DNA of 64,000 nucleotides from Iphione sp. A-MEVVRFRX5 (Eukaryota): contig OZ320316.1 of assembly GCA_976226885.1 (NCBI GenBank), forward strand, positions 87,420,001-87,484,000. The letters run 5' to 3'. Shown one piece after another: positions 27,301 through 45,920 of this stretch. Under the pieces are notes generated by a model. That model ran no database searches. It saw only the letters and a program-made list of their open reading frames with translations, and was not told where the DNA came from. Every line of letters starts with the position of its first letter. Position 1 is the stretch's first letter. A program made the position numbers and the translations under genes.

Positions 27301-29045
27301 ATAATGTAGTTATCCCGTCATAGATCTGTGTGCTCAACTTACTAAATTATGTTTCTTAGAGGAGGCGGCAGTTCAGCACAGGATCTCCAGGAGGACCAAA
27401 GTATTTTCACCCGAACTTATTGAAGCCAGGCTTATTTAAACTACCTATATAAAACGATGCCTGAAAGTAGTTCCGGCTGAGATACTTTTAAAGTCTCATA
27501 ATTTGCTTATGCTTATGTATTATTACTGTTTTTTTCATATCATAGACAAAAATCATATGTGTTCTGTCAAAAAAAGACAAAGCAAACGAAAGTGCACATA
27601 AAATTATGTCACGTTGGACTACTTTTTCAGTCAGGTACAGGGATATACTAAGATGACTGGGGTTGGGGGATCAGAAATAGAGGAAGGGGTCAAAGTACAG
27701 AGTGTCCTAACAACCCAGTGAATGTAGGTGCCAACACTTGTTTATATTTAACTCATTTTGTTGCTGTCTGTCACTTATGGTTGCCTTATCCTGGCATGTA
27801 ACTTGTTTTCCACCTGTTTGTCTTTTCGCCTTGTTTTGTTAGTGAGTCAATAGCATAGTTTCCCTAATATTGCAGTAGTTGGGGTCCCATTGAAAGATTC
27901 TTGCTACTTTTTTTATAGGATAATGGAGAGTATATTGAATTTGGTACTTGATGCTTGCAGAGTAGAAGGACAGACAATTTATTAGTGACGATGACTGGCC
28001 CTCCTTGAAATTCTTGCTATATTATAATTTAGCATTTCTGCAACTATTTTTACGGCTTCAACATCTGCTTTATAGGTACACAAGTATTCATCTTACCAAC
28101 CGCAAAGCTTAAGGCTACATACCTCATTAAAATGAATAGGCCAGAGCCTACATTGAATTAGCTTTGAGTTAATATTTGGATGACATAGTATTGTTGATGT
28201 AAGTAGTACATGGAAATAGACCATTTGCACATCTATGGCTTCGATCTGGCCACCGAGTGTGATGCTCTTCTGTCTGTCAACTGATTCCTGTCTGGTTAGA
28301 GTGCTACAAATTAAATGTTGCCTGAAAGTAGTCTGGCCGTTGGTTAAGATCTCATGTGTATGAGACTCTTCCTGAACCTTAGGATTTCTTTTCTCTCATA
28401 GGTTATGTTAATCTTTTTTGGAATAATTGAAACTGTCACATGTTTTATGGTTAAAAAAACATAGCATAAAAGAAAGCACACCGAAAATCTGACACTACTT
28501 TTTCAGTTGGGGTAGTAATACACCACACGCATCTTCAGCAATTGTAAAATTGTAATTGTAAAATATTATCTCCCTACTGAAGGGTGGAAGGGGGTCGTGA
28601 CCCAATTATGTTCAGCCCAAGCAGTCACCCCAACTACCGCCCCTATCCAGTCATCTAAGGAGTCAGTGCAAGTGCCGAAGGTGCTTGTTAGTGATAAGAA
28701 TGCTGTCATTGTGTCCACACCCAACGTTTTCCGTCTTGCCTCTATAGGGTTATCATTTCTGTCTATAAACTCTTTTTGGTTTATTTAGGCTGCGGCTTAA
28801 GACTAGTTGTTTTTACTTATTGGTTAATGCGTGGTAAACGTAGGCTGAAGGATTGATGGTTGATTGATGCTGATTGACGAAATGGTTAAGTTTGTTTTGT
28901 GGCTCAGAACCATAGGTTGGATGTTCGAAGCTAAGGGTTGACAGCTTAAACTATAATCACTTCAAATTTAGTCTAAACCATGAGAATTAACAAACACTGA
29001 AAATTGCATATGGCGTTTTTCCCTTCCTGTAAGACAAGTAACATG

Positions 29046-29387
29046 TGTAGCGGTGTCATGTGGCAACGTTGCACGGTGCAAGGTTGCATTGTGCGAGGTG
29101 GCACTGTGCACTGTGCATTGATGCTCTCAGCGCGGAGTGCAGTGTTGCAGTGTCGCCTCGTGCTTTGTGCTTTGTGCTTCGTGCACTTGCGATTGACGCA
29201 TCGTGCAGCGTTGCACCATGCACCGCTGGAGGGCTCCAGCCTATAAAAGCAGGAGCTGGAGCCCTCTCCAGGCAGTTCTGGGCAGGGAACCATACTGTGA
29301 GCATCTCACTCATTATTGTCTCAGCAATAAAGATCCTTGGTTCATACTTCCTAGTTATGTCTTACTTGCGGAGTGGCCGACGTTACA
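29046..29387 (+). repeat. 5' LTR
   Basis: TGTAGCGG...CGTTACA. TATAAAA at 29242-48 and AATAAA at 29326-31. Direct repeat of 38731-39072. Confidence 0.97.
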
Positions 29388-30136
29388 TTGGTGGCAGCGG
29401 TGGGATCTCGTCCCCCGCTGGCCGCCCCCCCGTAGGGAGGGGGCGCCGACGCTTACAGTCGCCGCCCGCACCAGGAAGGGATAGCGACTCAGAGGCCTGG
29501 GGTACCGAAGGCGCTCTGAGCTCGGACAGTGAGATTGAGCTGATGTTGGTCCGCCCCCCGTCGCGGGCCGCGCCCCGGCCGTCGAGGCGTCGGACGCCGA
29601 CGGGCGCCCCGCGGGTGGAACCTGGCGCGTCGACGGCTGGCGCGTCCCGACGAGGGAAGGAGTCCACCGACGCGGGAGCGAGCAGTGCGTCGACGAAGGG
29701 CGCACGAGCGCGGGGTGCCACGACGCTCGGTGCCGCGGCGATCGACGCAGATGCTATTGACGCAGGTGCGATCGACGCAGGTACGATCGACGCAGGTACG
29801 ATCGACGCAGGAACGATCGACGCAGGTACGATCGACGCAGGTACGATCGACGCAGGTATGATCGACGCAGGTACGATCGACGCAGGTACGATCGACGCGG
29901 ATGCTACCGACGCGGATGCTACCGACGCAGATGCTACCGATGCAGATGCCAGCGACGCAGACGACACCAGCACGGACGCCCCTGGTGCAGGCCACACCAA
30001 CGCCGACGCGGTCAATGCAGGTGCGCTTGGCGCGGGCGCGGGCGGGGTATATGCACCCCGGGGGGGGCGGCCGGCTCGAGCACCCCCCTTCCCCGCGGGC
30101 TCAACACAGCGGGTACCAGAGGAGCGGATACCGTGA
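29357..30136 (+). CDS. 5' ORF ('ORF0', 259 aa) starting in the LTR; low-complexity with IDAGT repeats; may be a Gag N-terminus or the first exon of a spliced ORF
   Basis: ATG at 29357 (MSYLRSGRRY) lies in the frame of track ORF 29060..30136. The stop overlaps the GTG at 30133 of the gag frame. Confidence 0.6.
   Translation: MSYLRSGRRYIGGSGGISSPAGRPPVGRGRRRLQSPPAPGRDSDSEAWGTEGALSSDSEIELMLVRPPSRAAPRPSRRRTPTGAPRVEPGASTAGASRRGKESTDAGASSASTKGARARGATTLGAAAIDADAIDAGAIDAGTIDAGTIDAGTIDAGTIDAGTIDAGMIDAGTIDAGTIDADATDADATDADATDADASDADDTSTDAPGAGHTNADAVNAGALGAGAGGVYAPRGGRPARAPPFPAGSTQRVPEERIP
29389..29406 (+). promoter_or_regulatory. Primer-binding site complementary to the tRNA-Leu 3' end
   Basis: TGGTGGCAGCGGTGGGAT starts 1 nt after the LTR. 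It is the reverse complement of ATCCCACCGCTGCCA+CCA, the 3' end of metazoan tRNA-Leu(AAG/TAG) as recalled. Confidence 0.85.
29741..29965 (+). repeat. 15 x 15-bp coding tandem repeat (consensus ATCGACGCAGGTACG)
   Basis: Counted unit by unit. Encodes IDADA/IDAGT/TDADA in the ORF0 frame. Confidence 0.95.
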
Positions 30137-31317
30137 CACGCACCGGCGGATCGGCAAGCGGCTCACTACTGGTACCTGGCCCCTCCCACGCGATAGCGAA
30201 GAGCGGAGGAGGGAACCACGTTGTCAAGCCGGGAGCCGCCCGCCCGAAGGGCGAACCGCAGGTTCCCCCCCACCGCGGCCCTGGTCGGGGGCGGTCCGAT
30301 ACCCGGAAGCCAGCCCACCTGGACCCGGGACGCGCCCCGCGGGCGCCTGGGGCATCCGCGGCGAGAACTCCAACCGACGAGGCCACTGCCTTGGTGCGAG
30401 GGTTGGTGTCCGGATTACAGGCCGCGATGCAGCCCCAGGCGGTGCCCCTGCCACCACCACGGCGGCACCATGTGAAACCTGAACCTTTCGACGGATCTGC
30501 ACCCTTGTCTGAATTCCTGCACCACTTCGGACTCGTTGCGAAGACCAACCGTTGGGACGACGCTGAGAAGGCCCTCCAGCTCAGCGTCTGTTTACGGAAG
30601 TCGGCCCAGTCGGCCCTCCGGTCGGCCAACGTGGACGTATCAGCACCCGGGGCCTACGCCCGGATAGAGGAGGTGCTGAAACAGAGGTTCCAGTCGGAGG
30701 ACCGCGTTACCTTTTTCGAGCAGGAGCTCAAACAGCGGCGCCAGGGCAAGGATGAGGATGCCCAGAAGCTGGGAGAGGAGATCGAGCGGCTGGCTCGGCA
30801 AGCCTACCCGGAAGCCGAAGGGGTCTGGCTTGACCGCATGTGCAAGGACTCCTTCGTCAGTGCCCTACGGGACGAACGAAGCCGCCGCTGGGTGGTGCAG
30901 GCCAAGGCCAGGACGTTCCAGGCAGCAGTCTCGGAAGCCCTCCTAGTGGAGTCGTTCCATCGGGCAGAAAAGGAACGTAGCCCCCCTGCCACCCAATCGC
31001 GTGTACGGGCGGCTCGCACTGAGGAGGACGAGGCCTTGGCCGCGGCAGCTCGCACCGCCCCCACGCCCCCCCCGCAGGCTTGGGACCGGATAGAGCAGCT
31101 GCTGGTCCGCCTGCTGGAGGCGCCCGCCGCCGCGCCCGCCCGACGAGGTCGTCGGGGAGGGAACGCAGAGGGCGGGTGCTTTTATTGCCATGAGAAAGGT
31201 CACTTCAAGCGGGATTGCCCGGCGCGCAAGGCGGCAGAAGGAGCGGGGGCGGCGGCCCCCCCAGCGGCCCCATCCAGCGAGGCGGGAAACGGGCAGCCGC
31301 CCGCCCCGGCCCAGTAG
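30133..31317 (+). CDS. gag: Gag (capsid-like region + CCHC zinc knuckle); true start uncertain
   Basis: KPEPFDGSAPLSEFLHHF...NRW capsid-type start and CFYCHEKGHFKRDC knuckle. The frame is open from 29761; the first ATG is at 30427. Confidence 0.9.
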   Translation: MTRTGGSASGSLLVPGPSHAIAKSGGGNHVVKPGAARPKGEPQVPPHRGPGRGRSDTRKPAHLDPGRAPRAPGASAARTPTDEATALVRGLVSGLQAAMQPQAVPLPPPRRHHVKPEPFDGSAPLSEFLHHFGLVAKTNRWDDAEKALQLSVCLRKSAQSALRSANVDVSAPGAYARIEEVLKQRFQSEDRVTFFEQELKQRRQGKDEDAQKLGEEIERLARQAYPEAEGVWLDRMCKDSFVSALRDERSRRWVVQAKARTFQAAVSEALLVESFHRAEKERSPPATQSRVRAARTEEDEALAAAARTAPTPPPQAWDRIEQLLVRLLEAPAAAPARRGRRGGNAEGGCFYCHEKGHFKRDCPARKAAEGAGAAAPPAAPSSEAGNGQPPAPAQ

Positions 31318-31327
31318 GGCGGGCGGC
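31284..31327 (+). promoter_or_regulatory. -1 programmed ribosomal frameshift signal (gag to pol)
   Basis: Slippery heptamer G GGA AAC (31284-90) in the gag frame, then a 5-nt spacer. Perfect 11-bp stem GCCGCCCGCCC (31296-306) / GGGCGGGCGGC (31317-27). A -1 shift lands in the pol frame. Confidence 0.8.
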
Positions 31328-31469
31328 CGCAACCGACGTTTCCCTGGGACTGCCGGAGTGTCTGCAGGCTCTGGCAGGGGCAGTCCAGGGAGAGCCGGCG
31401 GTCACCCTGCAGGGCCACTGAAGGCGCGAGTTCAACGGACTGCTCCTGTCAGGGGAGTTTGGGGGCAGA

Positions 31470-34400
31470 ATGATTGATTGGCTGATCGATACTGGCGCTT
31501 CAGCATTGCTCCTCTCCGCTAAGGTGTTCGAATCGCTGCACGGAGTTCCGCTGGGACCCGTGGACGCCCGCGTGTACGGTGTAGACGGCGCCCCGCTCGC
31601 AGTGAGAGGATCCGTGGCGGGGATGGTGTACTTCCAGGAGGCCGCAATCCCCATGCGGGCTCGAGTGGTGGATATGGAAGTGCCTGCTATACTGGGACTT
31701 GACTGGCTGGACCGCTGGGAGGCGGTGGTGGACTCTCGGAAGGCGCAGGTGGCGTTAGGCCGGATACCGGAAGAGACAGCGGCACCCTTGACGGTGGCAG
31801 CGGACACCACGGTCCCAGCGGGACAGGTCGGGTGGCTGCAAGCCGAGTGGCGGGGAGAGGGACTCCCGGGTGAGAGCATATTGGCAGAGGCCAGCAGCCA
31901 GTTCGAGGAGAGGTCGGGGCTGCGAGTGGCCAGGGCCGTGGTGTGCCCGCAAGAAGGCCGGCTGTGGGTGCCCCTTTGGAACCCGGGACCAGTCGCAGCT
32001 TGCGTCTTCCGTAGTACGCAGCTCGGGACAGGCCATGTGGTGAGCGATGTGGTGACCACCTACGCGGCACCGGCGGAGGCTGTGAGGGCCGAGCAACGGG
32101 AAGCGGTGAAACAGCTGCTAGACCAACTACCAGAAGGACTGTCGGGCAATGACCGAAGCAGGATCCAGGCCATGCTGGAGGCACACCACGGCGTATTCCA
32201 GACACCAAGTGGACCCTTGGGGTGCACCCCCGTAGTGCAGCACCGGATCGACACGCAGGGGCACGCTCCCATCCGCCAACGGGCGCGGCGTCTACCGCCC
32301 CATAGGAAGGCGGAAGTGGAGCGGGAGGTGGAGTCGATGCTGGAGAAGGGGGTGCTGGAGCATTCCACCAGCCCGTGGGCGTCCCCCCTAGTCCTGGTCA
32401 AAAAGAAGGACGGGAGCACCCGCTTCTGCATTGACTATCGGCGGCTGAACGCGGTGACGAAGAAAGACGCGTATCCCTTGCCTCGCATCGACGACACCCT
32501 GGATGCGCTGCAGGGGAACCGCTATTTTTCTGCAATTGACCTGGCCAGTGGCTACTGGCAGGTCAGGATGGACCCGGCCGATGCAGAAAAGACGGCCGTG
32601 TGCACTCCTGGAGGGCTATACCAGTTTCGGGTGATGCCCTTCGGGTTGTGCAACGCACCGTCGACCTTCGAGCGCCTCATGGAGTCCGTGCTGCGGGGCA
32701 TGGTGGGCACAGACTGCCTCGTGTATCTGGACGACATCATCGTGCTGGGCCGCACGGTGGAAGAGATGTGCGACCGTCTGGGGCGAGTCTTCGACCGGCT
32801 CCAGCAAGCCGGACTGCGAGTCAAGGCATCGAAGTGTCAGCTGTTTCAAGAGGAGGTGGCGTATTTGGGCCACCGGGTGTCTGCCCGCGGTGTCGGGGTG
32901 GACCCCGAGAAGATTGCCGCTGTGTCCGCCTGGCCGGTGCCGCGTTGCAGTGAGGAGTTACGCGGGTTCCTCGGCCTCTGCTCATATTACCGGAGCTTTG
33001 TGGAGGGCTTTGCACGGATTGCGGCCCCCCTCCACGCGATGGCGGACCGACTGGCGGAGTTCGCCTGGACGGAGGAATGCCAACAGGCCTTCGACCACCT
33101 GAAACGACGACTGTGTTCGGCACCGATCCTGGGCTACCCCTCCCCGCAGGGAAGGCTGTTGCTCGACACGGACGCCTCCGACACGGGCGTCGGGGCAGTG
33201 CTGTCCCAGGTCCAGGACGGACAGGAGCGGGTCCTGGCGTATGCGAGCCGGACTCTCACTAAGCCTGAGCGGAATTATTGTGTGACACGACGGGAGCTGC
33301 TGGCCGTGGTGTTTGCCTTGCGCAAATTCCGCTGCTATGTGGGAGGGCGGAGTGTCGAGATCCGGACTGACCATGACTCGCTACGGTGGCTGTGTAGCTT
33401 CCGGGAACCGCAGGGCCAGCTAGCCCGTTGGTTGGAAGAAATCTTCTGCCACGACCTGGAAATCATCCATCGGCCAGGCCGGAAACACGGAAATGCGGAC
33501 GGCTTGTCGCGGCAGCGGTGCAAGCAGTGCACTAGGGAGATGATCCCGGAGGCCGCAGAAGTAGCCGCGGTCACGGCAACCCCGTGGGCGAGCGCTGCGC
33601 GCCTCGGCAACGCGCAAGCGGCAGAGGAAGGTACGAACACGATCCGCCGGGCCTTGGAGGCGGGGGACGATCCCCCAGGGCTAGAGGTCGGACTGACGTG
33701 GGAGGAGCGCCAGCTACGGGCGGAAGGAGGCCGGTTGTCCCTGCGAGGCGGAGTGCTGATGCGGCACTGGGAGGCCGAGGGCGGGCAGGCGGTATACCAG
33801 GCCTACGTCCCCTGCGCCATTCGGGCAGAGCTGTGGCAGGATGTTCACGCAGGCGCGATGGGAGGCCACCTGGGCGCCAAGAAGACCCTCGGGTTGCTGC
33901 GGCAGAAGTGGTTCTGGCCCGGGATGCGCCGAGATGTGGGGCGATGGACGGCGGCGTGCCAGGCTTGCCAGCGACGTAAGGCGCCGCCCTGTTCAAAGCG
34001 GGCCCCGCTACAGTCGCGGCCGGTGAACGAACCCTGGGAGTTGGTGGCGGCTGACATACTGGGGCCTCTGCCGGAAACGCCCCGGGGCAACCGGTATGTC
34101 TTGGTAGTGGCAGACCACTTCTCCAAGTGGACGGAGGCCTTTCCCCTGGCCGAGGCCACGGCTAAGGCTTCCGCGGAAGTCATCGTGCGGGAGGTGGTCT
34201 GCCGGTTTGGCCCCCCCCGGGTGTTCCATTCCGACCAGGGCCGCAACTTCGAGTCGGCGCTCTTTACCGAGGTGCTGCAGCTTCTGGGGGTGGAGAAGTC
34301 CAGGACTACCCCGTACCATCCGCAGAGCGACGGCGTGGTGGAGCGCTTCAACAGAACGCTGGCTAACATGCTGGGCACCCTGGGGGAGGAGCGTCGGGCC

Positions 34401-37400
34401 AGCTGGGATCTGGCCCTTCCCTACGTGATGGCCGCTTACCGGGCCACCCCCCAGGGTTCGACCAACATGTCGCCAAATCGGCTCCTGTTCCACCGTGAGG
34501 TCAACCTACCCGTGGAGCTCCGCTACGGATACCCCAAGCCGGACGTGGTGCAGCGGAACCAGTTCGTCAGCCAGGTAGAAGATGAGGTCCGGCAGGCCCA
34601 CCAGCGAGTGGCAGGGCGTCTGAACCGTGTGGCGGAGCACCGGCGTGACTGGTACAACCAGAAGGTCAGGCCGCAAGGTTACACCGTGGGACAGAGGGTC
34701 TGGTTGTTTTCACCACTTCGCCGCCGGGGAGTCCCTCACAAGTTCCAGGATTGGTGGGAAGGGCCTTGGCAGATAGAAGAGAGGCTTTCAGAGGTCACCT
34801 ATCGAATCGGCAAGGGCCCCAAAAGGAGAGTCGTCCATGCGGACCGACTCAAGCCAGCCAAGGAGGACCCTCAGGTGACTTGCACCAGTCAGGCTGTCCT
34901 CGCGGATGCAGGAATAGTGGCTGCGCCAACCGCCGGAGCTGGGAGTGTAGGTGCGTTGTGGCACCTTCGACGCGAGGCGTGGAACGAAGCTGCGTCGATG
35001 CGAGCTTCGCAGGTGCACCCTTCGCCAGCCCGTGGCGCCCCCCAGCGTAATTCCGCTCGTGCGTCGATGCTAGCACTGCAGACGCGCCCTTCGTCGGCAT
35101 GTGGCGCCCCCCAGTGTGAGTCCGCTGATCTAAGCTACTGGGAACGAGGCAGCACCCCCCGCGACTGCGTTCCTCGCTCGCAGACCTCGTGCCTTCATAG
35201 CCCGAGCAATCGACGGAGCAAGAATCCTCGCACGACAACCGAGAACGCATCGTTCCAACGGAAAGCCCGCCGCTACACTGAACGCCAGGACGCCGTGACC
35301 TTTCCCGCACGGACAGTACAAGGCCAGGTAGGCGTTTTATCAGGTGCAACAATCGTACAAGCTACGAGCGATAATAGGGGCCGCCCCGTTAGAAGGTGCC
35401 AGCCTTGCCACAGCAATAATCGAAGGGCCGGTGTAGGCTTCAGCACGAAGGGTGGCTGCGTTGATTGTACGGGAGTAAGGGCGCCGGACTGCCACCGTAA
35501 CTGCGCAGCCTGTACTGGCGGCGGAATATCGCGAGTTGAACGCGCAGGCGGCAGTTGTAAGGGAGCCACTTGTTCGCCAGTAGAAAGGTCGAGCCACGTT
35601 TGCGCTGTAGTAGAAGCACGCCGTGCTGACTCCGCGGCCTGTACTGGCGGCGAAATACCAAGGGTTAAACGTGTGAGCCATGTTTGCACTGTAGCAGGAA
35701 CGCCCTGTGCTGACTCCCGCCTTATTCCCGCAGGCACTCGACGCAGCGTCCGTCGGGGCAATAGCGCTCGACGCAGCTACAGTGTACGCCCCGTGCATCA
35801 GGACCACGACGTTGGCCGCGCTGACGGTTGCCGCAGCTACGATCGACGCACCTGCATTCCACGCAACAACGAACGGTGCCAGGACGATCAGCGCAGCCCC
35901 GCGCCCACTCACTACCAGCGACCCGAGGTCAGCATGGCGGAGCACGACCCGACCCCCAGCACCTCAGACGCCCCCGACGGCCCTCCCTTCCCCTGCCAGG
36001 TGTGCGGGAAGGAATTCGCCGAGCTGGAGGGCATGTACGAGCACATTGCAGCCGCCCATCAAGTCATCGGGTTTGGCTGGCTGTGCCCCTTCCCCAGATG
36101 TCAGGGGACCGCCTTCAAGCGTAGGGCCGATTGGAAGCGGCACGCAGTGAAGGTGCACGGCTCGGAGCGGGTGGCACACTCCACAGGCGTGGAGCTGCTC
36201 CGATTTTCGGGTTATAACCCGACATTCGGGGTGGTGCTGCCCTGTCCGCCTGAGCGGCAGGCAGAGTACGACCGCCGGAAGCGGCAGGATGAGAGGACCC
36301 GGCGGCGGGACCTATTGAACTGGATTGCTCAGCGGCAGGAGCAAGGGGAGACGGAAGAGGACTCGGGGGACGACCTCCCACCTGCGGGGCCGCCTGTGGC
36401 CGCGCCCCCGGGCCCCGGCCCCGTGGAGCCTGCACCCGCGGGCCCCGCCGACCGGGCAAACTCCCCCCCTCCCCCGAGAGGGGACTCTGCAGTCCCGGAG
36501 ACCCCCCCCGCGCCGCGGAAGGCCGATCCCCCACAGGACCCGGGCACCCCCCTGCTGGACGAGGCACCGCTCGGGCAAGGGCCCCACACCCCGTCAGAGA
36601 CACCTGAGTCGGGAACGTCGGCCCCTTCCCACACCGGCACGCCATCGGGAAGCTCCTCGTCTTCCCCTCCTCGTCGGGGAGCGCCCGCCCGGACCTACGA
36701 AAGGGCCAAGCCCCAGGGCACCCCGAGCTCCTCGTGTGCCCGCACCGCGCCGTTGGTGCCCACCCCTGCCGGCATCAACCTGGAGGGAACCCCGGCGGAG
36801 CCCCACCGCCGGCAACTGTTCCAAGGGGGACGAGCCAGAACACCCCCAGCGCCGCCGACTCCGCGGGAACCATCACCAGAACGGCCGGCCTGGTCAGATT
36901 ACGAAGACGCCACCGAGTCGTCACCCCTTGTGCCTGGAGGCGTATCCCTGCGGGGACGCGCATCCTTCCGCCATCCACGGCGCCGGGGGGCGGGTCGGAT
37001 ACCGACTTCCTCCTCCGAGGAAGAGCCCCGCACCCCAGGGAAGGGCTGGTGGACCAGCCCCGCCCGCGCTCGGACGCCCGGCCGCCGAGGGCCCGCGGGA
37101 CGCAGCCATACCCCGGCGAAGGTGAGCCGGACGGCAGAGGAAGAGGAAGCTCAGCTGGATCACCGGCTGGGCCCTGGCTGGGAGAGGCCGACGGAGAGTG
37201 GGCCTGTGGTGGTCCTCGAGGATTCGCCGGGTGCCTCCCCCCCGCTGGCGCGGAAGAAGGCCCAAGCTACGCCCCAAGCCAAGGAACCCGATACCCTGCA
37301 GCGGGCCATGGCCGCTACCTTAGGGGAGGTAGTGTGGTTAGAGGGGGAGAGCTCGGAGCTCTCCGACACCGGAGCGGGGCCCGGGGTGACGGCGCGTACC

Positions 37401-38552
37401 GCCACAGCAAGAGAAGAGGAGTTGGCGACCCTGACCGCCGATTCTACGGTGGCGCGCCGGGGCTCGGATGTTCCCCTGCTGGAGGACATCTCCACTCAGG
37501 AATACACCGAGGAGTGGTCGGAAGGACCGCCCGAGGACGAAGCAGGAGGACTGGGCGGGTCCTCAGAGTCCGGGGCGGCGGCCGCCCCGCCGGGCGAGGG
37601 GGACAAGGGGCCCCGACCGCCGCCAGCAGATGAGGACCTCGGCTCACATCGGCCTCCAGCGGGGCCGACCGACGAAGCCGGGGACGCTCGGACCGCCCAC
37701 ACCGCTCGTGAGCCAGGGGAGCGGCCCGATGACCCACCGCGGGGTCGCCCACAAGAGGAGCCCCCCCGTGGGCCCGGGGAGGCCACCGACTCATCAGAGG
37801 AGGGCCGCGGTAAACCGACAGTCTCGGGAGTCGCCACACTCAGCCTCGTGGGGGCGACCCCCCCAACGGATGGGGCCCGAGTGTCGCCACCACCACCGCC
37901 ACCAGTGTCGCCACCACCACCGCCACCAGTGGACCAGCCGGACGCTGTGGGGCCCCTACCGGTACCCCCGGAGCCCGAACGACCAGTACCAGCACCCGAC
38001 GGGGCTGGCCTAGCGGGCCGCCCCCCCCAGCCACTGGGTCGTCGGCAGGACCAGGGCGCGCTCTCCCCAGTGGCCCGAGTTAACCCCGCGGCACCCCGAG
38101 GGAGGGGCTTGGCCGTGATGGGCAGCCCCCGAGGCACCCCCTCACGACGCCCCGGTGGGCCACATTACGCCTACCGATGGACCTATGAGGACGTCTCCCC
38201 CCCTGCCTCTGAGGACGAAGGAATACCTGACGCGGTGTACCATTGGGTAACCACCCTGCACGTGTCTCGACAGTCCGCCCCGCCGGTAGGGTGGCACATC
38301 GTGAGTGCCTCCAGCACCGCGGAAGTACAGCTCGCCGGCCGCCAGGAGGTCAAAGTACTCCTGGTGCAGTCTATTAGCTTCCGGCCGTCGGGGGAGGCTC
38401 CCCCGTGTGACTTGATGAGTTGGCACGCCCGCCGGCCCGGGAACCTGACCCGAGGGCGGGCGTTCCGCCGGTTTACCTCCTGGGCCGACTGCCAGGAAGG
38501 GGAGGAGGTAGTGGCCGAGGTGAAGGAGACCTTCGTGGTGCGGCTACGTTAG
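31470..38552 (+). CDS. pol: Pol (protease, RT, RNase H, integrase) continuing in frame into a ~1230-aa extension with two C2H2 zinc fingers
   Basis: LIDTGAS (31488), YLDD (32724), DTDAS, integrase H..H..CQAC, ADILG/HSDQG/VVERF and the GPW...HADRLKP tail (~34857). No stop until 38550. Confidence 0.95.
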   Translation: MIDWLIDTGASALLLSAKVFESLHGVPLGPVDARVYGVDGAPLAVRGSVAGMVYFQEAAIPMRARVVDMEVPAILGLDWLDRWEAVVDSRKAQVALGRIPEETAAPLTVAADTTVPAGQVGWLQAEWRGEGLPGESILAEASSQFEERSGLRVARAVVCPQEGRLWVPLWNPGPVAACVFRSTQLGTGHVVSDVVTTYAAPAEAVRAEQREAVKQLLDQLPEGLSGNDRSRIQAMLEAHHGVFQTPSGPLGCTPVVQHRIDTQGHAPIRQRARRLPPHRKAEVEREVESMLEKGVLEHSTSPWASPLVLVKKKDGSTRFCIDYRRLNAVTKKDAYPLPRIDDTLDALQGNRYFSAIDLASGYWQVRMDPADAEKTAVCTPGGLYQFRVMPFGLCNAPSTFERLMESVLRGMVGTDCLVYLDDIIVLGRTVEEMCDRLGRVFDRLQQAGLRVKASKCQLFQEEVAYLGHRVSARGVGVDPEKIAAVSAWPVPRCSEELRGFLGLCSYYRSFVEGFARIAAPLHAMADRLAEFAWTEECQQAFDHLKRRLCSAPILGYPSPQGRLLLDTDASDTGVGAVLSQVQDGQERVLAYASRTLTKPERNYCVTRRELLAVVFALRKFRCYVGGRSVEIRTDHDSLRWLCSFREPQGQLARWLEEIFCHDLEIIHRPGRKHGNADGLSRQRCKQCTREMIPEAAEVAAVTATPWASAARLGNAQAAEEGTNTIRRALEAGDDPPGLEVGLTWEERQLRAEGGRLSLRGGVLMRHWEAEGGQAVYQAYVPCAIRAELWQDVHAGAMGGHLGAKKTLGLLRQKWFWPGMRRDVGRWTAACQACQRRKAPPCSKRAPLQSRPVNEPWELVAADILGPLPETPRGNRYVLVVADHFSKWTEAFPLAEATAKASAEVIVREVVCRFGPPRVFHSDQGRNFESALFTEVLQLLGVEKSRTTPYHPQSDGVVERFNRTLANMLGTLGEERRASWDLALPYVMAAYRATPQGSTNMSPNRLLFHREVNLPVELRYGYPKPDVVQRNQFVSQVEDEVRQAHQRVAGRLNRVAEHRRDWYNQKVRPQGYTVGQRVWLFSPLRRRGVPHKFQDWWEGPWQIEERLSEVTYRIGKGPKRRVVHADRLKPAKEDPQVTCTSQAVLADAGIVAAPTAGAGSVGALWHLRREAWNEAASMRASQVHPSPARGAPQRNSARASMLALQTRPSSACGAPQCESADLSYWERGSTPRDCVPRSQTSCLHSPSNRRSKNPRTTTENASFQRKARRYTERQDAVTFPARTVQGQVGVLSGATIVQATSDNRGRPVRRCQPCHSNNRRAGVGFSTKGGCVDCTGVRAPDCHRNCAACTGGGISRVERAGGSCKGATCSPVERSSHVCAVVEARRADSAACTGGEIPRVKRVSHVCTVAGTPCADSRLIPAGTRRSVRRGNSARRSYSVRPVHQDHDVGRADGCRSYDRRTCIPRNNERCQDDQRSPAPTHYQRPEVSMAEHDPTPSTSDAPDGPPFPCQVCGKEFAELEGMYEHIAAAHQVIGFGWLCPFPRCQGTAFKRRADWKRHAVKVHGSERVAHSTGVELLRFSGYNPTFGVVLPCPPERQAEYDRRKRQDERTRRRDLLNWIAQRQEQGETEEDSGDDLPPAGPPVAAPPGPGPVEPAPAGPADRANSPPPPRGDSAVPETPPAPRKADPPQDPGTPLLDEAPLGQGPHTPSETPESGTSAPSHTGTPSGSSSSSPPRRGAPARTYERAKPQGTPSSSCARTAPLVPTPAGINLEGTPAEPHRRQLFQGGRARTPPAPPTPREPSPERPAWSDYEDATESSPLVPGGVSLRGRASFRHPRRRGAGRIPTSSSEEEPRTPGKGWWTSPARARTPGRRGPAGRSHTPAKVSRTAEEEEAQLDHRLGPGWERPTESGPVVVLEDSPGASPPLARKKAQATPQAKEPDTLQRAMAATLGEVVWLEGESSELSDTGAGPGVTARTATAREEELATLTADSTVARRGSDVPLLEDISTQEYTEEWSEGPPEDEAGGLGGSSESGAAAAPPGEGDKGPRPPPADEDLGSHRPPAGPTDEAGDARTAHTAREPGERPDDPPRGRPQEEPPRGPGEATDSSEEGRGKPTVSGVATLSLVGATPPTDGARVSPPPPPPVSPPPPPPVDQPDAVGPLPVPPEPERPVPAPDGAGLAGRPPQPLGRRQDQGALSPVARVNPAAPRGRGLAVMGSPRGTPSRRPGGPHYAYRWTYEDVSPPASEDEGIPDAVYHWVTTLHVSRQSAPPVGWHIVSASSTAEVQLAGRQEVKVLLVQSISFRPSGEAPPCDLMSWHARRPGNLTRGRAFRRFTSWADCQEGEEVVAEVKETFVVRLR
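35994..36158 (+). other. Two tandem C2H2-type zinc fingers within the pol frame
   Basis: CQVCGKEFAELEGMYEHIAAAH and CPFPRCQGTAFKRRADWKRHAVKVH fit C-x2/4-C-x3/4-F-x8-H-x4-H. Confidence 0.85.
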
Positions 38553-38718
38553 GGGAATAGTGGATGCGGACTGGATCGGACTGGAACGCGATGGATTTTG
38601 GCTTGGACATGGTTGCGCGGAGATAGCTGATGACCCTGGCGCGCCTGGACTTTTTTCGTTAGCGTTACGCGTTGGACTGTGTTGCCGTGGTTGAACTTTG
38701 GGGACAAAGTTGATTCTT

Positions 38719-38730
38719 GGGAGGGAGCAG
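38719..38730 (+). promoter_or_regulatory. Polypurine tract
   Basis: GGGAGGGAGCAG abuts the 3' LTR. Confidence 0.8.
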
Positions 38731-39072
38731 TGTAGCGGTGTCATGTGGCAATGTTGCACGGTGCAAGGTTGCATTGTGCGAGGTGGCACTGTGCACTGTG
38801 CATTGATGCTCTCAGCACGGAGTGCAGTGTTGCAGTGTCGCCTCGTGCTTTGTGCTTTGTGCTTCGTGCACTTGCGATTGACGCATCGTGCAGCGTTGCA
38901 CCATGCACCGCTGGAGGGCTCCAGCCTATAAAAGCAGGAGCTGGAGCCCTCTCCAGGCAGTTCTGGGCAGGGAACCATACTGTGAGCATCTCACTCATTA
39001 TTGTCTCAGCAATAAAGATCCTTGGTTCATACTTCCTAGTTATGTCTTACTTGCGGAGTGGCCGACGTTACA
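38731..39072 (+). repeat. 3' LTR
   Basis: 340/342 identical to the 5' LTR by manual comparison. Confidence 0.97.
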
Positions 39073-41453
39073 CATGTTTGGTTAAAATAGCGATACCGTC
39101 ATTCAAACTGCGATACCTCTTTTATCCAGCATAGATGCATCCAGAGAATATGCTACATGAGAAGTACCATTGATTAACCATTCCAACCCAAAGGCTGGGC
39201 AGTTTCCCATAGATTTAAGGATCTAAAGCAGAGCATTAGTATCAAGGAGTAAAAGCTTTCCACTGAATGGTTAATGCATGTAATTGGCTGTATGTATGGT
39301 GATTTTTGTTTCAAGCAGACAGATAACTAATCTTATACTACACATGTATGTAGTATGTTTGATGATAAATAGGTTATTGATCATATGTTCTTCACTAAAA
39401 CATAGCTAAGTCACACAGCTGTAAAGGAGAGTCGAGATGAGGGAGAGTGTGTCATATTATGGCTTAATAATCCCGTTTAAAGGTAGGATCTGAGGAGGTG
39501 CATCATTCTAAGTTTTCTTTAGAAGTGAAATTATCGTTCATGTACATACACATATAAATATATGCGTATCAGCGTATACCTGACTATGCCGAGTAAGAAT
39601 ATGTTCGACGATAGTAACTACCATAATACTAACAGAGTTACCGTGTTCAGCTTTAAACCAATGTCAGCACCAACTGGAGCAGTTACTGTAATAGAAGAGC
39701 TTCTCATCCAGGTGAGAACTCTAGCTGTTGCTAGTCCAGTGACACTAGGGTCTCAAAATTCTGTACACAGATACTGTAGTAGTGACTTGAACCTTCTTTT
39801 GTAACAACTAGAGTAAGTAGTGGTAAACCAATACATGTATATCCTCAACGCATTTCTCAGAGTTTTATTGCCTTATTGTGGACGAAATATAGCTGCTTAC
39901 AAGTACACAGTTTTAACAAAGTGTCTCTTCTTAGAAAACAATGCTTTTATCAGATGGGAAAGAGGCCTACTGGTTTGCTGATTTTATGCGCCTTTCTCAC
40001 GCCATTATAGCACCATAAATATAGTTTATAGTGTTTAGGGTGGCGACTGTCGGGAGCGAATGATGTAGCACTGAGGTCAACCGTTTCTCATACGGTTATG
40101 GAAAAATACTTTCAGTATAAATATTCTCAAATTCATGGCAAGGACGACAGTCCTCTTGGCGTCGGATTAATCCATGCGCTGCTGAACAACTCCATCTCGT
40201 TGTAGGATGTGGAAGATTGAGGAGAAGTAGCGTTTCGCACAGCAGGATATTCTTCTCTCGGCGTATCACATGCCCGATGATGACTTGTTTGATGGCCCCA
40301 ATCCAAGCAATCTGTATCCCCTTACAACTGCCAGTGATCGATGTGGACACTGCTCACCTCTTCCCGTGTGGTAAGGTGGTCGTCGGGGTGCTGTCTCCAT
40401 GGCGACAGGTTCAGGTATCTCTCCTATCTAAGTAGTGTTTTCTTCCTCACCTTTCCCACTCCGTTCTCGATGTTATCGGGGAGGGGGGGGACGGAAGTCG
40501 GTGAGAAACACTTTGCAAGTTGCGGGGGCGGTTGTCGAGCGAGGAAGTGTTTCTTTTTTCTTATCGGATACCGTGTAAATGTTGCAATTTACCTGGGGCA
40601 CAACGGGATTCGAATCATTTTAAAGCTGTCAGTGTTCGAAATCCCTCGAGTTTCCCTCCATTAATTTATACTTTACGTGTGCAGATTCAGCATCAATGAG
40701 AATGAAGCGGTTTTCACGCTTCTTGCTCATGATGCAGTTTCCTAATGGTTCATGAGGAACGGCTGGTCCTTTTTAATTACGGAGCAACCGCAGGATTCGC
40801 GTATACGTTTCTGATGGTACTGTCCTTGTCAAAGCCCACAGCTGCTTTCTGTTTTTTGTTTTTTAAGGCTTTTAATTCCGCTGAATTTGACGTACGAAAT
40901 TAATTTGCACATTATCCAGCTTTTTGCCTTGTTTCTTGCCACTTGATTAAGTTCATGCTGTTGATGAGATATCAGTTCTTTTCATTTTGTTCTCAGTCTC
41001 CAGATATGGACAACTCCTGCACGAGTATTGGTAATGTTAGATGAACAATGATATCCACTCCTATCTATTCTTTCTGGTGCGTACTATCATTAGGCTCAGA
41101 TGTCCCTACCTTTATACATGTCATTGTGGGTTTATGAAAAATTAGATTCTATAAGGAGCAACCTTGTCATTTCATTTAGTTTTATCGCCTTGCTTATAAA
41201 TAAGAACTACCAATACCTCATACAGTACACAGTGTATTGTGGCCCATCTCCATAACAGTTAAGGGAGAAGGCATGTCACAGAATGCAAGAAAGTGGCAAT
41301 GCCACTTTGCCAGTGATGAGAGGGGCTACATAGGACTTCTATTCGACGGTAGCAGCATCATTGCTTACCGACTACCAATACCCCGGGAACACATGCTGTT
41401 TTCAAGTTATTCTTTCCTCTCTACCCCCCCATACTAGGCTACACCTTGGCAGA

Positions 41454-42700
41454 TTAGGGTACTTTGAAAGACAGTTTCTGCGACCTTCCTAACTGTGTGA
41501 TATATGCCTTGAATTCTTTATTCCTCATCTTTTTTACGTCTTTCGGTAGCTTATTCCATATCCTGCTACATGTGTAGCTGATAGACCTTTTGTAGCTCTC
41601 CTTATCTGGTTTAGCTGTTGCCACCTGGCGCCTACCTGAAGATCTAGTTGTAATACCTTTATCTACAGCAGTTGCTAGGCTGTACACCAAGTTTAAGAGT
41701 CTCAGATCCCTTCTGGCTACAAGTCATCTTCCACCTCCCTCCTGCCCGCCCTTCGATACCCATAGGCAGTATTTATCATTTGCCTTCTTGCATTAGGCGA
41801 TTGAACGATTTTGCCCTGGTTTTAGTTTCTTTACCACCAAGTTCTGATATTCTTCCATTCTTAGTTGGCCATCTAACAGAACCCCCAAGTACTTTAGCTA
41901 CCTCCTGCAGAGTGAAGTCCCAGGTGGCCCCTGTGTTTGTTATTGCTATAGCTGAATTGCATCAGGTACGTCTTTCCTTTGTTTACTAGGATTTTAGACC
42001 CTTGTGACCACTGAAGAAGTTTGTCCACACACTCGCGGATTTCTAACAGCAAGCCGGGTTTGCTGTCAGCTTCAATGATTATCGCGACATCGTCTGCATA
42101 CATTATTGTATGAAACTCACTAAGATATTTAGATAGGCTGTTTATGAACACTAGGAAAAGCAGGGGTCCTAATGGGGTACACCGCACCGGATTAACCTTG
42201 CTTTTGATACAGTGTCATTACTTAATATCAACTGCCTTCACCCATTTAAGTAATTTTCGAACCATCTCAGGTTTTTACCTACTATTTTATACCTAGCTAG
42301 TCTGGTCAGCAAGAGAGTTTGATTTACGGAATCAAAGGCTTTTTAAAGTCTATGAAGATTCCCACCAAGAGCCTACCTTGATTCAGCTTCTCATGTGTAA
42401 AGTTTAGTAAGGAGACAATGGCATTTTCTGTTGACTTACCAGGAAGAAAACCAAATTGCTGCTCCGCAATAAGACCCTGGCCTACAAGATGGTCTAAAAG
42501 TGCAGCATGGATGATCTTTTCTTGCTCTTTACTTATGAGGCTCAGGAAACTGATAGGTCTATAGTTATTCACCAATTCCTTGTTCAGTTGTTTCTTATAT
42601 AATTGTATGAACAATGGATTGTTAATGTATTTGTCTGGTGTTGACGAGTTCAGTGTGTTTGATGAAAGCAGTCTACAGGATATGTTCTTTCGTTTAATAT
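41454..42700 (-). mobile_element. Degenerate 5'-truncated non-LTR retrotransposon (CR1/L2-type RT remnant)
   Basis: NYRPISFLSLISK, QQFGFLPGKSTENA, GIFIDFKK, LGPLLFLVFIN, MYADD (~42090) and C-terminal SRIWNKLPKDV. Frameshifts and deletions present. Confidence 0.85.
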
Positions 42701-43985
42701 TGCCAAGCTACTTTCACAGTACATGTATTATCTATTTCTGTCATCATTTATTGAAAAATATAACCTAAGTAGGTTCCTCCGAATGGCAAATTCTATGTTG
42801 ATTCCCCGCCTCCTAGGGGAGGCGACCCGTCTGACTCTCCATCATGATGTTGTGGGCCTTAAAACTTCAATACCCTTAAGTCAAATGAACTTAATTGTTT
42901 ATACAATGCTTATCTACATGGATGCATTGTACTGTTTATTTCAGTTTTATTTCAAGAGGTCAAATTAATATATATATTAATATACAAGCACCTTCTCCTT
43001 TCTAACACCCCTCTACACATGCACAGACAGATTGGAAATGTCACGGCACGTCACTATGTCATGGTGTGTTCATCCAGCCAGAAATAATTAGTTACACTTG
43101 ATTGAATGGCTGGTGATAGATCATGCATACACCTCACAGATCACCCTTTTTGTCTCTGTTGTGAGAATACATTATACTCTTGAATATGGTAATTGCTGAC
43201 ATCTTCTTGAGGGGCTTATTACTATAATTTATCGCTCATCATTTATCCCCATTATCTGGTTAATATAAACGCTGCTGCTGTGTTGTTTCCTCACTTGATA
43301 TATCCTAATAATATAACATGGTGTCTTCTGTAATTGCTTTGATTTGGAATTTTGTATTGTTAGGTTGCTGTGATATCTGCCGTACTCTTATCAATGGGAA
43401 TGTTACCAAAGTTGTCTCATCAAATACATGTATGCTGTTATATGGATTGGAAAGAATAATGCAGTCATACATATTAGGGGACGGTTTAAAAGTGTTCTAA
43501 CACTCCTGACGTAGTTTGGTGTAATTAATCCCCTAATAACAATCGAATTCACTCAGAAATGGTCAGAGGACTATCACACAGATGGATATTATAAGGCGAA
43601 GTGCCATTGGCTTAAAAAAAAACAATATGGCAGCTGCTTGATGACTCAGTTCAGAAGTTTGCGAGAGAAATGTGATCAAAGTACAGACAGAAACGACTTA
43701 TAATTGCAACCTAAATATGAAGTTGTATATTTGTGCTGCTTAACTTTGCCCACTGACAGCTGGAATCTAGCACATGGTGCCAGTGTAGAGAGACAGTTCT
43801 GAGTGACAGTGGTCTAAATCCAAGGCTGCAAGTCATTGAGTGAACACCCTTCAAATACCATTAGCAGTCATTGGTGAGGGTATGTATCAGCATACATACC
43901 TGAAACAAGGGCTTTGCAGAACAACGGAAAAGTTGGAACAACACATATAACTTTTTGCTGGTTATGTGCCTTTGTAAAACACAGT

Positions 43986-45920
43986 ATGGCATCCACTGAG
44001 GCAAACAGCCAGACAAATCGCCAGATGGAGCCAGCCTCCCTGGTGACGAGAAAGAGGACATTGCACACTAACCCGGAAGAGGCGAAACAGCCTCCCAAAT
44101 CCAAACAAAAGCAGTGCCTTAAAGGTCCACCAGGTCTGAGAAACCGGACCCCACACCTGCTCTCCTGGATGCAGTCATTTCTCTGAATCAAACCATGGGT
44201 GGTTTTAGGGAAGATATGGCTGAATTCCACTCAGACTTCAAAGGAAAGGTGTCTTCCCTGATAAATGCCCTGAATTTAGGTTTCAAGGGCTATCAAGATG
44301 ACGACGTAACCCAGATGGTTTTGGGCCTGTTGCCACAGCAAAGTACTCCTCATCAAGTTTCCAATGAAGAAGATACTCTGCACATTTTATTTGTGTTAGG
44401 AGCAGCTTAAAAAGGATGAAGCAGTGGGCCCTGACATCCCACAGAATGTTGCAGTTCAATTGTTGGGAGGAACCAGCCATTCCATTCAGTTACTCAACTC
44501 TATACAAGAATAGTTGGGTGGCCTCAGTGGATCTCAAAAATGCCTATCATATGGCACCAGACCACCACATCACCAGCAAAATGTGACATTTTTATTGCCT
44601 GGGCAATTCTATAGGTATGTCTTTCAGCCTCTTGTCAGTGCCCAGGTTGTTCACCAAGCTCCTTAAGTGACCCCTAGTATCCCTATATGAATAAGAACAT
44701 GATGTACTAGCCTACCTTGATGATCTGTTGGTAGTGGCTCCTTTATTGAAGAAGTGGTCCACACTAACTTTGGCAGTTGCTGAACTCTTGACTAACTTAG
44801 GATTTGATGTCAACTGGAAGAAGTCCTCTCCTGATCCAACACAGAAATTCTTGTTTCTAAGGTACTGGCTTGACTCAACCAAGATGATGATTACCCCGCC
44901 TATTGCAAGATCAACATTGTCACTCACAATTACAATTACAATTACAAATGTTGTACAAGCTTGGGGCTACCCAAATATTGACTTCTTTGCTTCCAGGGCT
45001 AATGCTCAAGTCAATTGTAATGCTGGATGCCTAATTTGTGGCCACTCCCTCTATTGATTGGGGACAATTTAGGTTGATTTATGTGTTTCCACCATTTTCT
45101 TTAATCTCTACAGTTCTGCAGAAGCTGAGACATGAGCCAATGAGTGTGATCATGATAGTGCCACAGTACCAAGCACAGGGGTGGTATAGCCGACTATGCA
45201 AAGACTGTCCACAAGCCATAATCTAGTTCCCATCCAGAACAGGCAACCTGATCAATGTATTCAAGAACACAGATATCTAGAACATCAATGAAATACTTTT
45301 GCTGGCAGCATTCTTTTCAAGAGAAAGATTGACAAATCCTTAATTTGTAATCCACTCCACAAGTATATGTACTCCTGTAGGAGATCGATAAGACTTTAAT
45401 ACACCTCTTATCAAGATAGATGGCACACGCATTGTGTTATGAAGAATGTTGATTCACTGAAACTTCAGTAAAAACTGGCCCTTTTGTTCTTGCATCAGCT
45501 TTTCAATGGCCATGAAATAGGTACAAACCATGTGCATTTGATTCATTTCTCTTCTCCTTTGAAGTACAACAGCGTGGCGGAAAACAACTCAGTCACACAG
45601 TGAGAGTACCATTTGATCAGGTACCTTAACTTTGTGGAGTCACCCATATTAGAATTTACATGATTGGCACTACAAATATAATAGGGGACCAAGCTGGTTA
45701 CTTTATTAGCTGTGTCCCTCACTATCAGGTGGTCACTACATCCACTTTAGCCAGATAGGTTAAAAATCTTTCAAGCAGGGATTGGCACAGGTACCTTTGC
45801 AGCAGACAGTACCAAGGCTATCTCCTCCAGGTTCTTACAAGAAGCATGTAGGCAGACAAGAACATGCCTCATCAGTTCTACTTCAAACACATATAATGTC
45901 AGTATGTTTTCCTGTTTAGG
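43986..45920 (+). mobile_element. Degenerate DIRS1-like tyrosine-recombinase retrotransposon
   Basis: RT: VDLKNAY, AYLDDLL (44713-24), LGFDVNWKKS..PTQ. N6-methyltransferase-like: WGYPNIDFFASRAN and IYVFPPFSLISTVLQKL. YR-like: TLAR*VK...AGIGTGTFAADSTKAISS (45775-45831). Confidence 0.8.

Follow-up and report, generated by a model that had tools for sequence, protein, structure and literature searches.

Here we describe a retrotransposon with long terminal repeats (LTRs) in a 64,000-nucleotide (nt) window of the Iphione sp. A-MEVVRFRX5 genome (assembly GCA_976226885.1, contig OZ320316.1, positions 87,420,001 to 87,484,000 of the forward strand), together with the accessory gene that it carries downstream of pol. 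The element, which occupies window positions 29046-39072 (∼10 kb), is a Ty3/Gypsy LTR retrotransposon (Metaviridae), because its pol follows the order protease, reverse transcriptase (RT), RNase H and integrase with a GPY/F-type end. A preliminary description of this DNA had treated the accessory gene as a separate third open reading frame (ORF) of 872 codons, and an ORF encoding 872 amino acids (aa) does run from the ATG at 35934 to the stop at 38550-38552. No stop codon separates it from pol, however: its 872 codons close a 2376-codon frame that opens in pol and has no internal stop (31422-38552), and it is neither a free third ORF nor a captured host exon. This in-frame link to pol, along with the intron and promoter-like signals predicted in the spacer between the two, had gone unmentioned before and is the most unusual aspect of the element.

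The accessory protein consists of two folded ends joined by a long disordered region, much as first described. Its two C2H2 fingers (35994-36059 and 36084-36158) are present even though they fall under the Pfam cut-off (zf-C2H2_4, 20.3 bits against 27): seven of the eight zinc ligands are invariant in 17 aligned copies, the remaining His is kept in at least 90%, and a finger profile matches solved C2H2 proteins with a best E of 6e-13, summed over repeats. The fingers are joined by QVIGFGWL, not by a TGEKP-type linker, and a structural model of the N-terminal module (mean pLDDT 86.6) predicts a beta-beta-alpha fold for the fingers, followed by a beta extension and then a long basic helix. Where about 670 aa of Pro/Ser/Glu/Arg-rich disorder had been claimed, we find ∼615 aa between the folded ends, composed of 20% Pro, 12% Gly, 12% Ala, 9% Arg, 9% Glu and 8% Ser; the basic and acidic motifs quoted earlier occur in the translation, and the many SP/TP sites amount to 12 SP and 17 TP in the whole protein. 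The protein has no transmembrane segment, as had been stated (top 19-residue hydropathy 0.89), a Pfam scan of the whole 2376-aa frame returned no env family and no chromodomain (the latter at E up to 1), and no known repressor or enzyme domain was found in the accessory protein. The C-terminal domain is modelled as an alpha/beta fold of four long strands and two helices (mean pLDDT 87.6).

Searching the genome (1.18 Gb, 89 contigs) with the C-terminal 146 aa as query gave 150 scored matches among 1,464 candidates, at 34-100% identity. We studied 40 long stretches chosen mostly for long open frames, a second set of 60 copies taken from the remaining list regardless of frame, and a third set of eight stretches that were reached by a distant finger-module search and were also chosen for long frames. 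The copies sort into ten lineages, namely A (the window copy), B, C1-C3, D1, D2, E, F and G. The integrase end and the fingers share one frame in 38 of the 41 copies that make up the first set and the window, a count biased by selection, and in all eight stretches of the third set. Among nine integrase matches new to the earlier lists, no whole element without the accessory gene was found: five have the fingers, one is internally deleted but retains the C-terminal domain, and three are cut off without a 3′ end.

Selection on the gene was estimated as the ratio of nonsynonymous to synonymous divergence (dN/dS), pooled by the Nei-Gojobori method over 11 within-lineage pairs, or fewer for RT and integrase, in which a segment is out of frame in some copies. 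The finger module (0.05) and the C-terminal domain (0.07) are as constrained as RT (0.05) and integrase (0.06), while the disordered region reaches 0.25 and the spacer 0.69. Four of the five other frames of the accessory region give dN/dS values of 1.7-5.1, and the antisense frame in register mirrors the sense frame at 0.10-0.13. Between lineages the dS of the accessory gene is near or at saturation which, combined with purifying selection, makes this an old gene, neither a chance frame nor a new capture. It is almost certainly needed for replication of the element. The proposal of a functional, non-env, transcription-factor-like accessory protein is thus borne out by siblings that keep the gene under purifying selection; it also survives a recent host exon as the alternative, given the saturated dS and the sister-branch homologs described below, and the C-terminal domain corresponds to no described family.

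The lineages also differ in how their parts are combined. Comparison of lineages A and B (window 31422-38552 against L043 and L044) shows near-identical RT sequences (dS 0.07-0.17), but dS is saturated in the fingers and the C-terminal part (1.5-3.2) and the LTRs are ∼77% alike. The opposite mix relative to the window copy is seen in L078, L079, L082-L084 and L099, with integrase at 81-83% and fingers at 87-94%. Pol and the 3′ module have been exchanged by recombination. One lineage A copy (L145:3873-4215) is cut in the spacer and adjoins an LTR of the same family in opposite orientation.

The spacer keeps its frame with little regard to the peptide that it would encode. It could be measured in 53 of the 60 copies chosen regardless of frame; its length is divisible by three in 43 of these and it is fully open in 32, and a control integrase stretch of similar length gives 32/43 and 22/43, respectively. 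Over the 43 in-frame spacers, stops total 22 when read in the pol frame, compared with 496 and 738 in the remaining forward frames; an antisense ORF was rejected as the reason for the open spacer, since the antisense frames hold 186-334 stops each. Across the first two sets, 70 fully open spacers have 39 different lengths (744-1875 nt). Shuffled spacers contain 7-17 stops each, and none of 300 shuffles was stop-free for any of the ten lineage spacers. The lineages scarcely align to one another here, codon periodicity is lacking (differences of 0.10/0.10/0.11 at the three codon positions in 16 pairs of open copies), and even between open copies just 26 of 58 alignment gaps are multiples of three, a figure that repeats may blur. 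Lineage D2 has a lower spacer dN/dS of 0.37-0.39. The ratio of observed to expected CpG is 1.06-1.19 in the spacer and 0.61-0.86 in the coding parts. With the frame kept and the peptide nearly free, translation through the spacer is the plain explanation, and we consider it very probable that the spacer is translated.

The same spacer carries signals of a second kind. A conserved Met lies 20-38 codons upstream of finger 1 in all 38 open copies of lineages A-D2 as well as in E and G, and further upstream in F, and codon periodicity begins at this residue (0.028/0.017/0.084). A canonical splice donor followed 25-45 nt downstream by a GCGATAAY-type motif occurs in 86 of 94 spacers against 1 of 3,500 shuffles, the misses including all four D1 copies, which carry the donor only. 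The distance of this motif (window 35368-35375) from the donor is fixed, at 41 nt in lineages A-C, 35 nt in D2, 29 nt in both E and F, and 23 nt in G; D1 has no such motif at that place, and tandem repeats lie upstream. All 46 open copies have their top-scoring pyrimidine-tract acceptor in phase 1, and in 42 of them the next ATG downstream shares the frame of the fingers. In 7,895 nt of leader sequence there are 4 off-frame ATGs, compared with 128 over 14,899 nt of intron sequence. ATGs are likewise scarce immediately upstream of the donor, their number over the 46 copies being 1 in the first 100-nt bin, 12 in the second and 34 in the third.

As the donor is in phase 0 and the acceptor in phase 1, splicing would break the link to pol and the predicted intron would serve a 5′ untranslated region. 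A spliced Pol fusion was rejected, as intron length leaves a remainder of 1 on division by three in 15 of 15 representatives and the upstream joining frame lacks a Met. No donor was found in the 5′ leader of five copies. Upstream of the donor, four of the 46 copies (from lineages F and G) have TATAAAA at about 200 nt, other lineages have AGRGGGCGC at about -190, and a GGCGC-type motif lies at 120-260 nt in 37 of 46 copies, compared with 11 of 46 in a control stretch. A AGAGGGCGC motif stands 186-249 nt upstream of the donor in the L051, L069, L134, L136 and L138 spacers, its strict form occurring in 19 of 46 copies; we take the AGAGGGCGC / AGRGGGCGC motif to resemble the CTCF core. The ATG-poor zone, TATAAAA, the GGCGC motif and the undepleted CpG point to a putative internal promoter, and a separate spliced mRNA for the accessory protein is a prediction that we consider probable. 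The features of the element are collected in Table 1.

Table 1. Coordinates of the features of the window element (positions in the 64,000-nt window)
Feature	Position	Strand	Remarks
Target-site duplication CATG, 4 bp	5′ copy 29042-29045, 3′ copy 39073-39076		
5′ LTR, 342 nt, TG...CA	29046-29387	+	Contains gag ATG at 29357; 2 mismatches to 3′ LTR
Primer binding site	29389-29406	+	Complementary to tRNA-Leu(AAG) 3′ end
gag with CCHC knuckle	29357-31317	+	Two frames here: 29357-30136 and 29761-31317
GGGAAAC slippery heptamer	31284-31290	+	Phase fits -1 gag-pol frameshift (putative shift)
Stop in pol frame, 5′ of protease	31419-31421	+	Private to window copy among copies tested
pol: protease, RT, RNase H, integrase, GPY/F-type end	31422-34853	+	Pfam PF13650, PF00078, PF17919, PF17921, PF00665, PF22938
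Spacer	34854-35933	+	Pol frame open, variable length, CpG-rich; predicted internal promoter and 5′ untranslated region
Two GGCGCC motifs	35034-35108	+	294 and 225 nt upstream of donor
Predicted intron, 406 nt	35328-35733	+	Donor AG/GTAGG (slash marks exon end) phase 0; acceptor pyrimidine tract-CAG phase 1
Conserved GCGATAAT motif	35368-35375	+	41 nt 3′ of donor
Accessory ORF, 872 aa from conserved Met	35934-38552	+	Pol frame
N-terminal module	35979-36341	+	Two C2H2 fingers, beta extension, 30-residue basic helix
Disordered region, Pro/Gly/Ala-rich	36342-38174	+	Short conserved motifs
C-terminal alpha/beta domain	38175-38549	+	Four long strands, two helices (model)
Polypurine tract	38719-38730	+	From sequence
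3′ LTR	38731-39072	+	

The preliminary description was right to call the element young, its LTRs differing at 2 of 342 sites, but the element is not intact, and the argument that the description drew for function from the intact frame of this copy fails, since the copy is broken in both gag and pol. In 9 of the 19 sibling loci listed, gag forms a single ORF that opens at the U5 ATG and reaches the zinc knuckle, and the pol frame is open back to the slippery site in 22 of 23 copies tested, the window copy being the sole exception. A hairpin 3′ of the slippery site is no better than in shuffles (z -0.38). The primer site pairs with tRNA-Leu(AAG) genes of the same genome, two of three loci checked being called tRNA-Leu aag by ARAGORN. 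With its start inside U5 (MSYLRSGR), gag translation would include the LTR end and the primer site, and the ATG lies at the LTR end in the lineages printed. Early gag contains a 15-nt tandem repeat (29693-29977, encoding xIDAG / xTDAD peptides), which has two weak look-alikes in the spacer at 35809-35898. Outside the element, short frames at 41894-42707 and 44695-45057 resemble, by eye, a decayed LINE RT and another RT fragment.

A search with Pol identified relatives beyond this genome, P0124 (2,315 aa; five records of its cluster have this full length) and P0095, and P0140 (2,636 aa) came from the P0095 cluster. In an RT-RNase H tree, a quick one of 43 rows without named reference elements, the 13 rows from this genome form one clade (SH-aLRT 100) with P0124 and P0095 as its sister (98). 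In both P0124 and P0140 the pol frame continues across a 450-540-aa spacer into a Met, with two fingers 20-22 residues further on and then a disordered region, and these fingers match our profile with hhalign E values of 4e-5 and 3e-5 (probability ∼70%, protein records only). Because the two share this build, the arrangement of pol, spacer and fingers is older than the radiation in this genome. A Gypsy Gag-Pol from another RT branch, P0115, ends in 275 aa that carry C2H2-like fingers behind a Met and may represent a separate gain.

Searches with the accessory protein itself found little. No relative of the second-finger module appeared among 7,999 candidates and no host relative of it was found; viral and metagenome scans gave only matches of 11-28 residues, the Atlas gave generic C2H2 clusters, and a fold search with the finger module had no match at E 0.001 or Z 5. 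The C-terminal domain had no homolog among 405 candidates of similar length, no Pfam family for any of 20 members, no match among PDB sequences, no usable Atlas match and none among 597 pattern matches in metagenome contigs. Five profile matches among 1.84 billion representatives were rejected as long repeat proteins with many weak stretches. No fold reached Z 8 or above; the best was a phage tail terminator (gpU-like; Z 7.3, root-mean-square deviation 4.0 over 100 residues, 7% identity), with best Foldseek E values of 0.002-0.014 and TM scores of 0.36-0.39, and we do not accept kinship on such middling structural likeness. Neither an internal duplication of the domain nor kinship with the C-termini of the sister proteins is claimed, as column-shuffled controls reached the observed scores in 9, 4 and 14 of 60 cases. 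The reach of the homolog searches is limited, since P0124 and P0140, which are real relatives, escaped them.

The contact residues of the fingers allow a naive binding site to be predicted. Finger 2 has R-1, D3 and R6 in nearly all copies, R-1 and R6 being invariant and N3 occurring in the C2 copy shown, while finger 1 has N3 and R6 in eight lineages and has lost them in A and B, where the window lineage carries a helix (ELEGMYE) without base-contacting residues. Engineered helices RSDDLQR and QSGNLAR bind GCG and GAA (PMC3607563), and EGR fingers that bind GCG have R-1, an acidic residue at +3 and R6 (PMC2709573); from these matches the predicted site is GCG-GA. The U3 of the eight lineages with N3 and R6 holds 2-6 copies of TGCGG against 0.4-1.1 in dinucleotide shuffles (p ≤0.03 in seven lineages and 0.12 in E), and that of A and B holds none. 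Lineages C1-C3, D1, D2, E and F show TGCGG enrichment in the intron or 5′ of the donor as well. The LTR trans-activation that had been offered as a candidate role gains indirect support from TGCGG in the LTRs. The match between finger and LTR motif is a lead, since a single event underlies it, it was picked out of several motifs tried, and the fifth position is frequently C instead of A. We slightly favour the prediction that the accessory protein binds the promoters of its own element and, if it does so, think it rather more probably an activator than a repressor.

Taken together, we suggest, as a reading about evenly balanced between right and wrong, that the accessory protein is a DNA-binding regulator encoded by the element itself and produced by two routes; production by both is likely because the open spacer also carries a conserved splice donor and acceptor, a leader poor in ATGs and, upstream of the Met, promoter-like motifs. 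In the first route, transcription would start ∼150-200 nt 5′ of the donor to give a short non-coding exon, the intron would be removed and the first ATG 3′ of the acceptor would start the 872-aa protein. In the second, ribosomes on unspliced genomic RNA would shift at GGGAAAC, read protease, RT, RNase H and integrase, cross the promoter and intron as filler peptide and terminate at the accessory stop, so that accessory protein would be loaded into particles with RT and integrase and a new copy would receive a starter dose. Finger 2 (R-1, D3, R6) would read GCG and finger 1 would add G(A); recurrence of the site in U3 and around the internal promoter could create a positive feedback loop, and the acidic and Pro-rich region may recruit host factors. 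That the Pol-fused form is itself useful seems to us marginally the better bet.

Several observations weigh against the regulator and its two routes. The donor pattern was derived from the same data in which it was counted, splice sites were scored by a simple pyrimidine rule, and a TATA box is present in only the four copies noted above. Lineages A and B carry an acceptor-like site ∼140 nt upstream of the donor, and their first exon could be spliced from further upstream rather than arise at an internal promoter. Among the relatives, P0095 ends early in the spacer and P0141 ends early at the finger start. As regards DNA recognition, the finger code calls for an A at a position that is C in most LTR motifs (GCGGC in D1, D2, F and G), the linker is non-standard, a host factor may bind the TGCGG motif, and, A and B being a single clade, the match between fingers and motif goes back to just one loss. 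The window lineage lacks both TGCGG in U3 and finger 1 contacts, yet its fingers are conserved. Finally, the free spacer peptide fits read-through that serves the RNA as well as it fits read-through that serves the protein.

This last point leads to the alternative that survives best, one that we regard as possible but less probable, in which the spacer is open for the sake of the RNA: ribosomes that reach the vicinity of the 3′ LTR would shield genomic RNA from nonsense-mediated decay (NMD) triggered by a long 3′ untranslated region, the Pol-fused form would be a by-product, and the working protein would come solely from spliced RNA. Missing codon periodicity and the low share of triplet gaps imply that the spacer peptide hardly matters, although the lower dN/dS in D2 weighs against this alternative, as does a conserved D-[PA]-[QEH]-[VI]-T-C stretch just past integrase in 8 of the 11 lineage representatives shown, at a guess a protease site. 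Most of the closest single-copy Pol matches (∼47-51% identity) end 100-300 aa past GPY/F, a weak counterargument, since it would turn on the lengths of their 3′ untranslated regions. There is precedent for the mechanism, as low-level readthrough or frameshifting, at rates down to 1.5%, protects NMD-sensitive RNAs (PMC6277124). RNA protection is compatible with a regulator made from spliced RNA, and the alternatives are not all exclusive.

Doubtful, and not to be told apart from activation by sequence alone, is an anti-silencing factor, a role likewise suggested earlier, or a self-repressor; instead of directly activating transcription, such a protein would bind CpG-rich DNA of the element and block methylation or heterochromatin, or limit copy number. 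The predicted site contains CpG, the spacer keeps its CpG as described above, the accessory modules and LTRs diverge faster than pol, and the pattern in A and B is as in module swapping under conflict; the protein nevertheless has no enzyme or known repressor domain, and its folded parts are under purifying, not positive, selection. An integration tether, either still attached to integrase or travelling with it and steering it to chromatin through the fingers or C-terminal domain as chromovirus chromodomains do, is still less likely. The tail lies C-terminal to integrase and in frame, as targeting domains do, and couples a DNA-binding-type module to a folded domain that, from its model, may be able to bind protein, but its own Met, the intron and the ATG-poor leader would be superfluous for a tether. 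In the 3′ flanks of 91 insertions (250 nt, one side) TGCGG is not enriched (0.72 per kb, compared with 0.82 elsewhere in the window), which makes simple targeting by sequence less likely and leaves the sequence-specific integration role put forward earlier without support; the sole bias is a central TA in 54 of the 91 target sites, with ATAT, CTAT, GTAT and ATAG the commonest bases after the 3′ LTR. A chance open frame, or a recently captured host exon with no role in the element, may appeal to the 70% GC content, the many long off-frame ORFs and the Pfam scores under cut-off, but is refuted by dN/dS values of 0.05-0.07, ten lineages with saturated dS plus a sister branch, and confidently predicted folds.

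If the self-encoded regulator is correct, the element bears on how transposons drive their own transcription. Self-encoded transcription regulators such as Tas, Tat and Tax are a hallmark of complex retroviruses, and Gypsy elements are generally regarded as reliant on host factors. Here a finger protein is conserved like RT, and ten lineages with differing fingers and LTR motifs offer a natural series in which to ask whether transcription is self-driven. It is possible, if on balance improbable, that this Ty3/Gypsy clade independently reached the design of a complex retrovirus, with its own C2H2 activator, a finger code that changes together with the LTR and internal-promoter motif, and a spliced mRNA for feedback beside a particle-borne Pol tail. 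A promoter and intron that must stay translatable would be an unusual genome economy, and would set protein delivery against RNA protection as its purpose. The C-terminal domain, well folded in its model, is without a relative in our searches, and the element also bears on the exchange of parts between C2H2 genes and transposons.

Extra ORFs and fused domains in LTR retrotransposons, and internal-promoter transactivators in foamy viruses, are already known. A search by title and abstract found no described Gypsy element with a C2H2 gene of this build, Repbase, Dfam, GyDB and supplements lying outside its scope. LTR retrotransposons of bdelloid rotifers likewise carry an extra 3′ gene in animal Gypsy-type elements, a non-env ORF3 (GDSL, DEDDy, coiled-coil or transmembrane) that typically forms a separate unit expressed from spliced messages (PMC5408684); those products are enzymes or membrane proteins, the word 'zinc' is absent from the main text, and the passages covered mention no in-frame spacer (PMC5408684). 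Domains translated within the polyprotein, as here, include a chromodomain, a DnaQ-like exonuclease and an SF1 helicase, with no C2H2 or zinc-finger case named in the text covered (PMC6338049), whereas the tail described here is ∼1,200 aa long and holds a second gene with a predicted promoter and intron. Errantiviruses, the env-bearing Ty3/Gypsy elements, have a third gene in the same position (PMC13524379), but here there is no signal peptide, transmembrane segment or env match, and a nuclear-type protein is encoded in the pol frame. The chromodomain that follows integrase in chromoviruses is absent by the same Pfam scan. Among C2H2 factors, the EGR1/Zif268 type shares R-1, the acidic +3 and R6 with finger 2, but here the linker is of GFGWL type, W replaces the usual L at helix position 4, and a beta extension and long basic helix follow the fingers. 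In foamy viruses (Spumaretrovirinae), the transactivator Tas/Bel1, encoded at the 3′ end and expressed from an internal promoter, acts on both the LTR and the internal promoter (PMC8670036, PMC4929722, PMC13220597). The accessory gene differs in belonging to a Ty3/Gypsy element without env, in encoding C2H2 fingers with no detected likeness to Tas (no Pfam match) and in lying in the pol frame, and by analogy only its predicted working logic resembles that of Tas.

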